From positions 1 to 37,220 of IMG/VR virus record IMGVR_UViG_2718218102_000005: a stretch of 37,220 nt of DNA, one strand, 5' to 3'. Positions 28,481 through 30,927 of the stretch are shown here, piece after piece. The position numbers and the translations under genes were made by a program. The notes under the pieces were generated by a model. That model worked only from the letters and a program-made list of their open reading frames with translations, had not been told where the DNA came from and made no database searches. Positions within the stretch are counted from its first letter, which is position 1, and each line of letters starts with the position of its first letter. Source of the DNA: a virus. Lineage: Duplodnaviria; Heunggongvirae; Uroviricota; Caudoviricetes.

Positions 28481-29167
28481 GTGAAAACATTGGCAGAAAG
28501 ACTAAAAAGCGAAAGAGAAAAAGCAGGAATGAGTCAGGCGCAACTAGCTGAAAAAATTGGGCTTTCACAACAATCCGTAGCGAAAATCGAGAATGGAGAA
28601 ACTCAACAGCCTCGGAAAATTAAAGAGATTGCTAAAGTGTTAGGGGTTTCTCAAAAGTGGTTGCAATTGGGCATTGAGGATAACGCGTCTTTCCCAGACC
28701 TTGTTGTAAAGGAGGCTGAAAGTACAGCATTAGATCCTGACATTTTTGCAAACATTCCAGTCCTAGATGTCGAGTTATCAGCGGGTAATGGATGTTTGGC
28801 TGAAATAGTTGAATCAACTGTAGACTGGTTCCCGCTAAGAAGGATTGATTTAAGAAAAGCTGGTGTATGTGTCTCCAATGCAAAGATCGTAAAAATTTGG
28901 GGCAATAGTTTACTACCTGTACTTAACAATGGAGATTTTGTTGCTGTTGATGTTTCCCAAACGGTTCCTATTCGTGATGGGGATCTTTATGCCATACGTG
29001 ATGGCGTATTACTTAGAGTTAAAATATTGATCAATTTACCTGACGGTGGTCTGATTCTAAGAAGTTTCAATAAAGATGAGTATCCAGATGAAATACTCAC
29101 CTTCGAAGATAGGCGTTCCAGAATTCACGTTATAGGTAGAGTATTCTGGTCATCGCGCACTTGGTAA
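28481..29167 (+). CDS. CI-type repressor (HTH-XRE N-terminus + S24 LexA-like peptidase C-terminus)
   Basis: 228 aa, GTG start at 28481 with SD gaggggg; N-terminal HTH (MSQAQLAEKIGLSQQSVAKIENGE), candidate Ala-Gly cleavage site (ELSAGNG) and Ser/Lys dyad context (IWGNSLLP ... LRVKIL). Confidence 0.85.
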   Translation: MKTLAERLKSEREKAGMSQAQLAEKIGLSQQSVAKIENGETQQPRKIKEIAKVLGVSQKWLQLGIEDNASFPDLVVKEAESTALDPDIFANIPVLDVELSAGNGCLAEIVESTVDWFPLRRIDLRKAGVCVSNAKIVKIWGNSLLPVLNNGDFVAVDVSQTVPIRDGDLYAIRDGVLLRVKILINLPDGGLILRSFNKDEYPDEILTFEDRRSRIHVIGRVFWSSRTW

Positions 29168-29194
29168 TGCATCAAAAAACCTTCCTTCAGAAAT

Positions 29195-29299
29195 TTAGTT
29201 ACCATTATTACCCGCCTTTTCAATCTTCCTCCCGTGATTTGAGAGTTTCCAATCACGGAAGGAAAGTGTCCCTTGTGTAATTAAAAGCGCATCGTCCAT
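29195..29299 (-). CDS. 34-aa small ORF with strong SD, convergent with cI
   Basis: Own translation MDDALLITQGTLSFRDWKLSNHGRKIEKAGNNGN; AAGGAGG 4 nt upstream of the ATG at 29299; contains the perfect inverted repeat ccgtgatt/aatcacgg (29232-29258). Coding status uncertain. Confidence 0.25.
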   Translation of the reverse strand: MDDALLITQGTLSFRDWKLSNHGRKIEKAGNNGN

Positions 29300-29350
29300 A
29301 CAACCTCCTTTTTTGATAACCCTTGCCCTCATTTCACATCCGTCAAAACC

Positions 29351-29400
29351 ACATAAAGTTGTTGACAACAACCAAAACAACAACTAGATTACAACTTAAA
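29351..29400 (+). promoter_or_regulatory. PL/OL-like early-left promoter and operator
   Basis: TTGACA (29362-29367), 17-bp spacer, TAGATT (29385-29390); overlapped by the same AAAGTTGT/ACAAC half-sites as the OR-like region, including the near-palindrome gttgttgacaacaac. Confidence 0.5.
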
Positions 29401-29482
29401 GATGTTGCAGTAACGAACAGGCAGGACGCCCACGAAGTAGCCGCCGGTGGCGTATGAATGACCGGATGATTCGTTAAATACT

Positions 29483-29704
29483 ATGTGTAAGAGAGCGCAA
29501 ATGAACCGTTATTTCACATGCTCGTTTTGTGGCGCAAACGAGCTGCAGGCAAAAAAAATCATCGCCAAAGGCGGAAAAGATGAAGTTGCTATCTGCTCTG
29601 AGTGCGTAGTCTTGTGTGTCTGGGCATTAATCAATATCAGCACAACTATTCAGTTCACACCAAATGAGAATGCGCCTTTAGATGCGCGGAAATCTGGAGG
29701 TTAA
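29483..29704 (+). CDS. Standalone ClpX-type C4 zinc-finger (ZBD-like) mini-protein
   Basis: 73 aa (67 aa if started at ATG 29501); YFTCSFCGANELQAKKIIAKGGKDEVAICSECVVLC compares closely with the ClpX N-terminal zinc-binding domain ([33 protein letters not shown], from memory); no AAA+ module follows. First gene after PL. Confidence 0.6.
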   Translation: MCKRAQMNRYFTCSFCGANELQAKKIIAKGGKDEVAICSECVVLCVWALINISTTIQFTPNENAPLDARKSGG

Positions 29705-29793
29705 AGAACAAAATGAAAGTCCAGATTTTAAACAATAACTGTGAAGTCGTTTGGGCGTAAAACATGACCGCGCGTAGACCAAGGGAGGAAAAA

Positions 29794-29970
29794 GTGGGAA
29801 TAGTTAGAAATCAAGCAGATATATTGAAAATCAGCTCTGAATTGCTTGGAGTTTTGAAAAGTGAGCTCACCGCACATGGCATCGAGCCCACTGACGAAAA
29901 TTTAAGTTGGGTTTTGTCGATTATTCAACAATCACTCAAGCCCAGCCTCAGCAAACTTTTTATCGAGTAG
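29794..29970 (+). CDS. Hypothetical small protein (58 aa)
   Basis: ORF track 29764-29970; GTG at 29794 has a strong SD (agggagg, 5-nt spacer); 3' end overlaps the convergent minus-strand ORF by 39 nt. Confidence 0.4.
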   Translation: MGIVRNQADILKISSELLGVLKSELTAHGIEPTDENLSWVLSIIQQSLKPSLSKLFIE

Positions 29971-30123
29971 TGCTTCGAACTTATCGTAAAGCTTGCTTAT
30001 GTCGTCTATCGGGTTTTCTGACGTACTGTAATTTTTATCTGATGTCATGGCAGCAGTCTGATATGCAGTGTGAGTCTTAACCGATAGTTGGAATAAATAA
30101 AGAATTTTTTCTTCTTTGGTCAT
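29932..30123 (-). CDS. Hypothetical small protein (63 aa), antisense to the PL transcript
   Basis: ATG at 30123 with AAGGA SD 7 nt upstream (MTKEEKILYLFQLSVKTHTAYQ...); AT-rich; convergent with and overlapping the plus-strand 58-aa ORF. Confidence 0.4.
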   Translation of the reverse strand: MTKEEKILYLFQLSVKTHTAYQTAAMTSDKNYSTSENPIDDISKLYDKFEALLDKKFAEAGLE

Positions 30124-30381
30124 AACTATTTCCTTCTTGGCTATATGAAAACACCAAGATACCACCGAGCCTGAAGTGGTGAAAAGACAGGCACATAACA
30201 GCTAAGTATTTTCAACCAGAGAGAATCCTTAGCGTTGTGGTGAATGCGCAGGCTGATGCGCGAAAGACATTGCAGCTATTGCGGAAAAGAGCTGTTCGGC
30301 GGGGCAATTAAACGCCCGTGAGAGTCTGAAATAACCGCAAGCCGGAGATCAGCACCGGTCACCACAACAGCCACTGCTTTG

Positions 30382-30427
30382 GCGGTACCAGTTTGTACAC
30401 TTGCTTCCGGCTGGTACCGCTCTTTTT
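30382..30427 (+). terminator. Strong Rho-independent terminator (tL1-like) in the early-left operon
   Basis: Perfect 10-bp stem gcggtaccag (30382-30391) / ctggtaccgc (30411-30420) followed by tcttttt (30421-30427). Confidence 0.6.
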
Positions 30428-30564
30428 ACAAAACAGAGAAGAGCATCACCGGACGACGGGCTCATAACCCAATCCATCCGGGCGGCTGCCACCGCAGGTG
30501 TTCTTCTCTGTTTTGTGGAGAAACCAACCGACCTTGCAGGGTCGATATGATGAGGAGCAGCAAA

Positions 30565-30927
30565 ATGGCTAGCGAACGCAGTACTGATGTGCAGGCATTT
30601 ATCGGGGAGCTGGACGGCGGCGTATTTGAAACCAAAATCGGCGCAGTTCTCAGTGAAGTCGCTTCCGGTGTGATGAACACGAAAACCAAAGGGAAGGTCT
30701 CACTCAATCTGGAAATCGAACCGTTTGATGAGAACCGTGTGAAAATCAAACACAAACTCTCATATGTTCGCCCAACTAACCGCGGGAAAATTTCCGAAGA
30801 AGACACCACCGAAACGCCGATGTATGTCAATCGCGGTGGTCGCCTGACTATTCTGCAGGAAGACCAGGGACAATTACTGACTCTTGCCGGTGAACCTGAC
30901 GGAAAACTCCGCGCAGCAGGTCATTAA
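30565..30927 (+). CDS. Hypothetical protein, YfdP-like (tentative)
   Basis: ORF track 30379-30927 runs through the terminator; ATG at 30565 (MASERSTDVQAFIGELDGG...) has an AGGAG SD 7 nt upstream and gives 120 aa; sits upstream of yfdQ/R/S-like genes as in CPS-53. Confidence 0.55.
   Translation: MASERSTDVQAFIGELDGGVFETKIGAVLSEVASGVMNTKTKGKVSLNLEIEPFDENRVKIKHKLSYVRPTNRGKISEEDTTETPMYVNRGGRLTILQEDQGQLLTLAGEPDGKLRAAGH

Follow-up and report, generated by a model that had tools for sequence, protein, structure and literature searches.

The subject of this analysis is a pair of small genes, and the apparently gene-free DNA beside it, in the early-left region of a 37,220-nucleotide (nt) stretch of viral DNA (Caudoviricetes; IMG/VR record IMGVR_UViG_2718218102_000005, positions 1 to 37,220; hereafter the window), an SfV/SfII-like lambdoid prophage of Escherichia coli (a 1.2-kb query, 29400-30600, is 100% identical to the ECE170 chromosome). 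Behind a PL-type promoter, a plus-strand open reading frame (ORF) of 58 amino acids (aa) and a minus-strand ORF of 63 aa run tail to tail into one another; beyond the start of the latter come a promoter-like element, two RNA modules (hairpin x and the D1 domain), a terminator-like hairpin and a Y-shaped RNA, which together lead up to yfdP (Table 1). Both small ORFs are real protein-coding genes under purifying selection, and they travel as one convergent unit, in a slot that related prophages fill with other pairs of the same layout.

Table 1. Features of the locus in window coordinates, minus-strand genes being given from start to stop (SD, Shine-Dalgarno sequence; PGAP, Prokaryotic Genome Annotation Pipeline).
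Feature	Position	Strand	Remarks
CI-type repressor gene (helix-turn-helix + S24 peptidase)	28481-29167	+
YdaS/Cro-like gene and ymfL (CII-like)	near the gene pair	-
PL-type promoter	29362-29390	+	TTGACA-17-TAGATT; sigma-70 consensus scan
Structured 5' leader of PL transcript	29412-29475	+	outer helix AACGAA/UUCGUU; inner hairpin 29444-48/29461-65
ClpX-type zinc-finger protein gene	29501-29704	+	67 aa, C4 zinc finger only; Pfam PF06689, E = 6e-11; PGAP
Plus ORF (58 aa)	GTG 29794 to stop 29970	+	phrog_15476; SD GGGAGG 29783-29788, 5 nt upstream
Dual-coding 3' overlap of both genes	29932-29970	both	39 nt
Minus ORF (63 aa)	ATG 30123 to stop 29932	-	WP_000159356 / SfII_36 / phrog_2605; SD AAGGAA (complement of 30130-30135), 6 nt upstream
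Promoter-like element and 5' untranslated region of minus gene	30124-30193	-	nearly invariant in 10 diverged loci
Small hairpin module x	30201-30233	+	GCUAAG/CUUAGC; by folding
D1, 135-nt structured RNA domain	30234-30368	+	closing helix GUUGUGGUG/CACCACAAC; hypervariable core
D1 5' hairpin	30246-30261	+	GCGCAGGCUGAUGCGC; conserved
D1 3' hairpin	30341-30359	+	CCGGAGAUCAGCACCGG; conserved
Hairpin A + U-run, intrinsic-terminator-like	30381-30427	+	GGCGGUACCAG..CUGGUACCGC, then UCUUUUU
Stem B (~25 bp) around Y-shaped two-arm junction	30423-30521	+	loop of one arm CUCAUAA
Hairpin C	30529-30544	+	just upstream of yfdP ribosome-binding site
yfdP	30565-30927	+	first gene of conserved early-left block yfdP-yfdQ-yfdR; PGAP; phrog_204

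An earlier note on this DNA had described the two ORFs, their SDs and a 39-nt overlap of their 3' ends; these coordinates are confirmed, and a comparison of ten loci establishes that both are genuine genes. A search of 5.8 billion proteins returned, for each ORF, homologues at 64-84% identity (64-83% for the plus ORF) with length kept, in Atlantibacter hermannii, Kluyvera, Klebsiella quasipneumoniae and metagenomes. For the coding tests, the DNA of ten diverged loci (Escherichia, Atlantibacter, Kluyvera, Klebsiella and metagenomes) was aligned, and in all ten both ORFs are intact, with zero stop codons and zero insertions or deletions. In the codons outside the overlap, variable columns fall on the first, second and third codon positions as 30/17/40 in the plus ORF and 23/13/44 in the minus ORF, with ratios of nonsynonymous to synonymous substitution rates (dN/dS) of 0.19 and 0.10, respectively; the remaining frames hold 11-43 stop codons each across the ten-locus set. 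Start positions and SDs of both ORFs are conserved among relatives; a longer, 68-aa reading of the plus ORF (from ATG 29764) is not conserved, relatives beginning at the 58/59-aa position. It is the codon-position pattern, the low dN/dS and the absence of stops and indels that identify both ORFs as real genes. The opposite proposal, that these are chance ORFs in a region that is merely untranslated spacer or an antisense small RNA (sRNA) locus, can appeal to their shortness, to the omission of the plus ORF by PGAP (which calls the minus gene alone) and to the want of a Pfam family; set against the evidence just given, from intact frames to conserved starts and stop-filled alternatives, it is extremely improbable. 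Annotation of the pair is uneven elsewhere too: SfII lists the minus gene as SfII_36, and in Atlantibacter the partner ORF was overlooked by the gene caller, yet is present.

The ten loci also show the two genes to be a unit, found together and tail to tail in every case, with an overlap of 39 nt in nine and of 27 nt in the Klebsiella locus (L018). Mean pairwise identity is 86% within the overlap, as opposed to 70% and 76% in the non-overlapping parts of the plus and minus genes, such that the overlap is the most conserved coding DNA of the pair, as dual coding would predict. The pair consistently lies between a CI-type repressor gene and the early-left genes, while the type of repressor and the identity of the downstream gene (yfdP, rdgC or others) vary. 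It is rare, being present in 62 of 5426 complete E. coli genomes.

Conservation extends upstream of the minus gene into the promoter-like element, which stays nearly unchanged where the adjacent coding DNA has drifted to ~70-76% identity, and which ends abruptly after GACAGGCA. The same element also adjoins unrelated minus-strand genes in SfV, 720R4, e14 and 2013C-3181. It contains an extended -10 motif, TGgTATCTT (TG at 30164-30163 and hexamer TATCTT at 30161-30156, minus strand), whose TGgTATnnT pattern is kept in all variants (TATGCT in e14, TATCCT in SfV); a candidate -35, TTTTCA (30185-30180), stands 18 nt upstream of the hexamer, and conservation gives out ~9 nt upstream of this candidate. 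We infer that the element is the promoter of the minus gene, with transcription probably starting near 30149 and a predicted 5' untranslated region of ~26 nt. An inverted repeat, CTTGG..CCAAG (30137-30158), straddles this putative start, and its arms co-vary by cassette, reading GCTGG..CCAGC in e14 (L007:2499-2520) and CCTTTTA..TAAAAGG in SfV (L002:2944-2975). A LexA box in the promoter was considered and ruled out on reading the sequence, the spacing being CTG-N14-CAG and not CTG-N10-CAG.

The slot beside this element is occupied by convergent pairs in other prophages as well. In SfV, orf33 (98 aa, plus strand, phrog_3195) converges with an unannotated 81-aa minus-strand ORF (phrog_3311) and overlaps it by 83 nt; in the K-12 prophage e14, ymfJ (plus, phrog_12693) converges with ymfI (minus, phrog_8894) with an overlap of 63 nt. 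The six proteins of the three pairs belong to six different PHROG families, and nothing hints at a link among them except that the 58-aa protein weakly matches phrog_2982 (E = 2e-4), to which the N-terminus of YmfJ is also matched. Shared by all three pairs are the position between a cI-type repressor gene with PL and a ymfH-like leader, the tail-to-tail overlap, the promoter-like element beside the minus gene and the structured leader downstream; what differs is the size of the proteins (81-113 aa in e14 and SfV, 58 and 63 aa here) and the length of the overlap (63 and 83 nt versus 39 nt). A group of enterobacterial prophages (SfV, SfII, e14 and relatives) shares one slot behind PL beside an invariant promoter-like element, and the recurrence of a single layout suggests that the two products of each pair may be functionally opposed, much like sieB/esc/sas in P22. 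Such a slot points to a common arrangement by which a function is switched from lysogeny to lytic growth, and offers testable roles for ymfI and ymfJ of K-12. Expression data from e14 bear on this: late in the SOS response ymfJ mRNA rises by ~4.8 log2 units and YmfJ protein is detected, and ymfI rises by only ~2 (PMC11002266), while the YmfT iModulon includes intE, xisE, ymfH and ymfJ but not ymfI (PMC12133099). From the SOS expression and the iModulon membership it follows that in e14 induction of the prophage brings up the PL-sense partner together with the ymfH-like leader, and that the antisense partner is regulated separately.

We accept that in the window PL fires rightward, against the minus gene, as the earlier note had it. 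This orientation follows from the promoter match, from AAGTTGT/ACAACTT operator-like repeats that surround PL and recur in the cI/cro intergenic region, and from the sequence that begins the PL transcript, which is kept in SfV and e14 directly behind the PL-like promoters there. On the plus strand beyond cI follow the small ClpX-zinc-finger gene, the gene pair, yfdP-yfdQ-yfdR and further early-left genes. The ClpX-zinc-finger gene is the first PL gene here, an extra insert that most relatives lack (in L014, L017, L020 and L025 it is missing from between the leader and the plus ORF); in most relatives the 58-aa gene is the first gene behind the PL leader.

Our favoured reading, to which we assign a probability of about 0.5, is that the pair is a conserved accessory cassette situated immediately after PL in lambdoid prophages of the SfV/e14 type, and that its convergent transcription renders a lysogeny-expressed and a PL-expressed gene mutually exclusive. 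In the lysogen, CI would shut PL, and the minus gene would be expressed from its own extended -10 promoter. Upon induction PL would fire and the 58-aa protein would be made early; polymerases from PL would then traverse the minus gene and its promoter head-on, such that transcriptional interference plus a fully complementary antisense RNA would silence the minus gene. The two helical proteins would hence be made in opposite phases, most likely as a factor of the lysogenic phase and its counterpart or antagonist in the lytic one. The earlier note had raised an antisense-regulated switch among its suggestions; the convergent, 3'-overlapping layout that this predicts is indeed conserved across genera and recurs with unrelated pairs in SfV and e14, and the switch itself would be our extrapolation from that layout.

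Several observations weigh against this reading. The minus-gene promoter was read by eye, its -35 is weak (TTTTCA or TTTTAA), and a simple consensus scan does not list it. The inverted repeat around the putative start may be a cassette-specific operator or a hairpin in either transcript, and may equally be a sign that the real start lies further upstream. A terminator scan reported no site downstream of the stop codon of either gene, and the overlap, read by eye, has no hairpin with U-run. Physical overlap alone could hold both genes together without a functional link. The ymfI gene of e14 shows a slight rise, and no fall, when the prophage is induced (PMC11002266). Finally, the roles of lysogeny factor and counterpart are guesses, because neither protein has a recognisable family, fold or partner.

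The principal rival takes up the fourth of these points and holds that the genes are unrelated cargo: two independent, uncoupled accessory genes of the 'moron' type, kept together by their 3' overlap, whose convergence insulates the prophage-expressed gene from PL. A dual-coding overlap is hard for recombination to break, neither protein has a known function, and the slot is a hotspot with differing cargo, with a single 171-aa minus gene in L009, a lone plus ORF in L008 and three annotated minus ORFs in 720R4. The locus does resemble lambdoid morons in being small cargo that varies between related phages, with its own candidate promoter, at a recombination hotspot; it departs from classic morons, which carry a promoter and a terminator and sit mostly in the late region, in being a convergent pair in the early-left operon for which no terminator was found. 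What speaks against uncoupled cargo is that three pairs from different PHROG families have the identical tail-to-tail overlapping layout in the identical place, and that the present pair is kept in all ten loci, which span at least four genera and have proteins as little as 64% identical, with both flanks changing. We consider it possible, if rather unlikely, that the two genes have nothing to do with each other.

Genes antisense to PL have precedents. In P22 and lambda, sieB is antisense to PL; it has its own promoter in the lysogen, and once the prophage is induced or a cell is infected the PL transcript regulates it in antisense, the PL-derived RNA that controls the P22 gene being sas. The minus gene resembles P22 and lambda sieB (with esc and sas of P22) in lying inside the PL operon and being transcribed against PL. 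It differs in its product, SieB being a membrane protein of ~190 aa and the minus-gene product a predicted soluble hairpin of 63 aa without sequence similarity to it, and in its partner, which is a separate convergent protein gene and not, as in sieB/esc, an internal start within one gene.

The proteins themselves offer few clues to what the cassette does. Pfam, NCBIfam and PADLOC gave zero matches for either, and PHROGs placed both in families of unknown function only; among PDB sequence profiles the plus ORF had no match and the minus ORF only noise at E > 0.2. AlphaFold2, run on small family alignments, predicts a soluble two-helix hairpin for each protein (pLDDT, the predicted local distance difference test score, is 73 for both), and a Foldseek comparison of the minus-gene model with the PDB found no match. 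Neither protein has a hydrophobic or transmembrane segment, both being hydrophilic or amphipathic. Among 1.8 billion representatives the plus-ORF family profile drew 15 matches, all lacking Pfam domains. They show the 58-aa protein to be a stand-alone version of a domain that also makes up the C-terminal end of larger proteins (120-200 aa), in which Pfam likewise recognises no domain.

These properties bear on another suggestion of the earlier note, a toxin/antitoxin-like pair, whether of type I (small toxin plus antisense RNA) or type II (two interacting proteins). Two small, tightly linked and co-inherited genes with overlapping convergent transcripts are what such a module might look like, and an operator for autoregulation might be seen in the conserved inverted repeat of the minus-gene promoter. 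A type I toxin is excluded because neither protein has a hydrophobic segment, and where an antisense sRNA would be expected the opposite strand encodes a conserved protein (dN/dS 0.19), both strands of the overlap being protein-coding. The soluble helical hairpins predicted for both proteins and the zero matches in Pfam, NCBIfam, PADLOC and PDB sequences, toxin/antitoxin and defence families included, are no more favourable to type II, whose genes would be expected in an operon and are here convergent. Given the missing hydrophobic segment and the convergent orientation, a classical toxin/antitoxin pair is improbable.

The DNA that the earlier note took to be an ORF-free interval (30124-30380) is ORF-free in a limited sense: no ORF of at least 60 aa is present in 30124-30564 save any that run into yfdP, and what else there is amounts to ORFs of 25-49 aa. 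The interval is not empty, containing the promoter-like element, hairpin x and D1. Nor is the sRNA locus that the note suggested supported as a minus-strand one: the first ~70 nt of the interval are the promoter-like element, and the structured RNA belongs to the plus strand, because its G.U pairs work there only, such that a minus-strand sRNA is unlikely. As a whole, 30124-30565 folds on the plus strand with z = -6.3. The structured RNA modules in and next to this interval are the newest element here.

The structure in front of yfdP is supported by covariation. Thirteen sequence variants fold into one architecture over 30381-30544, and in an analysis of 10 variants, 53 consensus pairs are paired in 95% of cells, with 13 pairs changed on both sides, as compared with 7.4 double-changed pairs in shuffled controls (0 of 500 reach 13) and 2-5 in slid controls; again the G.U pairs place the structure on the plus strand. 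Hairpin A has the sequence make-up of an intrinsic terminator, a G+C-rich stem of 10-13 bp running directly into a U-run, and both stem and U-run are kept in the 13 variants, with 4 compensatory pairs. Its U-run doubles as the base of stem B. Hairpin C is present in all variants despite their differing sequences, with double changes at 3 of its 5 pairs. Over the Y-shaped RNA, PGAP lays a coding sequence, 'ymfH', or frameshifted pseudogenes, and it is a named coding sequence in K-12 (e14 locus, L007:2780-2890). In the window this frame is broken; since the reading frame is not conserved, ymfH is a doubtful ORF, and a structured RNA with a terminator-like hairpin is more likely. In a published screen, a clone of e14 'ymfH' triggers the retron-Sen2 toxin (bioRxiv 10.1101/2020.06.22.160242), which may be an RNA effect. 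A Y-shaped module with the same arm sequence stands directly behind tRNA-Arg in one viral contig. In the Klebsiella prophage (L018:2700-2790, minus orientation) a tRNA-like element, so judged from its sequence, takes the place of stem B, with a 7-bp acceptor-like stem (GUGUCCG/CGGACAC) and a T-arm (GCGGG-UUCAACU-CCUGC).

Hairpin A raises the question of how PL transcripts get to the genes behind it. Under the favoured reading, unmodified PL transcripts would end at hairpin A; in e14, PL transcription evidently passes it, because xisE and intE are induced. A possible answer is the structured leader, which begins ~15 nt past the predicted PL start, is ~65 nt long and occurs in 53 phage records from Escherichia, Salmonella, Klebsiella, Yersinia, Pectobacterium, Providencia and Aeromonas, with at least six compensatory variants in the inner stem and one A-U to G-C change in the outer helix. 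We hypothesise, by analogy with HK022 put, that the leader is a put-like antiterminator. Put-type elements are two-stem RNAs of ~70 nt right behind an early promoter, and this is what the leader is; it shares with HK022 put the length (~65-70 nt), the two helices, the proximity to the PL start (at most ~15 nt), the absence of an N-like gene from the phage and the presence of a terminator-like hairpin downstream. It differs from HK022 putL in that the shared strings are short only (ACGAAC, CAGGAUGA) and stand at different structural positions. A put-like leader would account for PL transcription getting past hairpin A: it may render polymerase terminator-resistant, so that yfdP and on through xis/int are reached. 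Seeing ymfH as an RNA with a terminator-like hairpin bears on the route by which N-less lambdoid phages get from PL to xis/int. A boxA/nut reading of CGCUCUUUUUACAA was dropped, the U-run alone being kept in relatives. The leader is also carried by T5-like Providencia phages, inside an annotated repeat region.

D1 shows a different pattern of conservation, in which the ends are held constant and the middle is exchanged. Viral contigs were scanned for the 5' end of D1, and at least 120 of them have it; among the matches listed there are 78 distinct copies in ~45 clusters, which keep the ends and have interiors (~30-150 nt) without detectable similarity to one another. We know of no described counterpart to a hypervariable core between fixed ends. 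In an alignment of 22 distinct copies, 94.7% of the cells in the three helices are paired, with many G.U pairs possible on the plus strand only and 3 pairs with double changes, a modest covariation support because the ends are nearly invariant. The segment comprising D1 and the structured leader ahead of yfdP is present in 2580 of the 5426 complete E. coli genomes. Stem B comes after 68 of the 124 listed D1 copies; 49 have other surroundings, and 13 are found at a distance of 120-430 nt from tRNA-Arg, tRNA-Ser or tRNA-Thr genes; in four inspected contigs and plasmid p1493-4, where co-orientation was checked, the tRNAs are on the strand of D1. The D1 of the window is itself 98% identical to a segment of P1-like plasmids directly behind tRNA-Asn and tRNA-Thr, where it is one of several similar hairpin modules in line, a few of them containing T-arm-like sequences. 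Hairpin x, adjoining it in the window, resembles the tRNA-like spacers ACAGGUAAGGG...CCCUUACC of P1-like plasmids (compared in p1493-4 and viral contigs).

Database searches identify none of these modules. Rfam (release 15) had no match at gathering score in the whole window, the C4 family included, and over 29100-30700 at E <= 10 its sole match was Hrs13 at E = 7, which is chance; a tRNA scan of the window found none. When genome contigs were scanned with the D1 3' hairpin GCCGGAGATCAGCRCCGG, the listed matches lay in high-G+C and other non-enterobacterial genomes and were presumed to be chance, uninformative on host range. D1 is found in close to half of the complete E. coli genomes, lies beside phage tRNA genes, is missing from Rfam and may be a new RNA class. 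Two other identities were considered for it and rejected. An AgvB/AsxR-type anti-sRNA, prompted by the CACAAC motif, is ruled out by position, size and sequence: those RNAs are 51-60 nt long, with a conserved 3' region, and form convergent pairs downstream of PR' (PMC4104026), whereas D1 measures 135 nt, is part of the PL leader and is bounded by other conserved sequences, CACAAC alone being common to both. An integron attC-like reading of the GTTGTG...CACAAC repeats fails on sequence inspection, the core sites misfitting GTTRRRY/RYYYAAC and the repeat order being wrong in D1.

Small stable RNAs encoded with phage tRNA genes are familiar from the species 1 and 2 RNAs of T4 and from the P1 c4 RNA, which is excised by RNase P. 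D1 and the Y-shaped RNA are like these in being structured non-tRNA modules of phage tRNA clusters, some with tRNA-like arms, and unlike them in sitting, here, in an mRNA leader. The interval could be mainly a functional plus-strand RNA, D1 being a stable or processed species with a constant P1/P2/P3 scaffold and a hypervariable core, transcribed together with PL or, in other phages, with tRNA genes, that works in trans or as an element for processing or insulation, and the two ORFs being incidental. The spread of D1 over so many contigs and interior clusters, its presence in far more E. coli genomes than the 62 with the gene pair, the copies near tRNA genes and in the plasmid tRNA region and the plus-strand pairing all argue for this, while the covariation, at 3 double-changed pairs, is thin, and the pattern of constant ends and changing middles might instead come from recombination between mosaic modules, whose junctions it would mark. 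We regard the proposal as plausible, though with the odds somewhat against it; it is compatible with the accessory-cassette reading, the two dealing with separate parts of the interval.

A bolder and distinctly speculative extension would be that D1 and the Y-shaped RNA, with its anticodon-like loop, both of which also occur inside phage tRNA operons, form an undescribed modular family of phage RNAs, cut from PL or tRNA precursors (RNase P, E or III could do this) and acting in trans, whose variable core would specify a host or competing-phage target; the adjoining convergent slot would then be a general site for a lysogeny factor versus a lytic antagonist in SfV-, e14- and SfII-type prophages. 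This is doubtful at present.

Rows of hairpin modules adjoin phage tRNA genes and finish at a strong terminator in p1493-4 (L012:2926-3260) and in L078, L029, L031 and L056. Their closing stems are of the form GTTGTG../..CACAAC or ACAGGTAAGRG../..CYCTTWCC, and some contain T-arm-like sequences; their appearance is that of unannotated RNAs made in one transcript with the tRNAs.

Some further features of the surroundings deserve mention. A 15-codon mini-ORF (29713-29760, plus strand, MKVQILNNNCEVVWA) matches residues 8-21 of SfV orf33 and diverges thereafter, and marks a mosaic recombination joint directly upstream of the gene pair. The circular, 37.7-kb record deposited as plasmid unnamed3 of E. 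coli CX04 (L006) carries, in the ~4.6 kb of it that were looked at, early-left phage genes homologous to the window, mostly annotated as frameshifted; it may be a circular phage genome. The many frameshifts led to its exclusion from the evolutionary analysis. A 34-aa minus-strand ORF lies between cI and PL (MDDALLITQG..., 29195-29299); it has a strong SD, GGAGG, and no meaningful family match. The 67-aa ClpX-type zinc-finger protein encoded at the head of the PL operon could disturb the binding of substrates or adaptors by ClpX.

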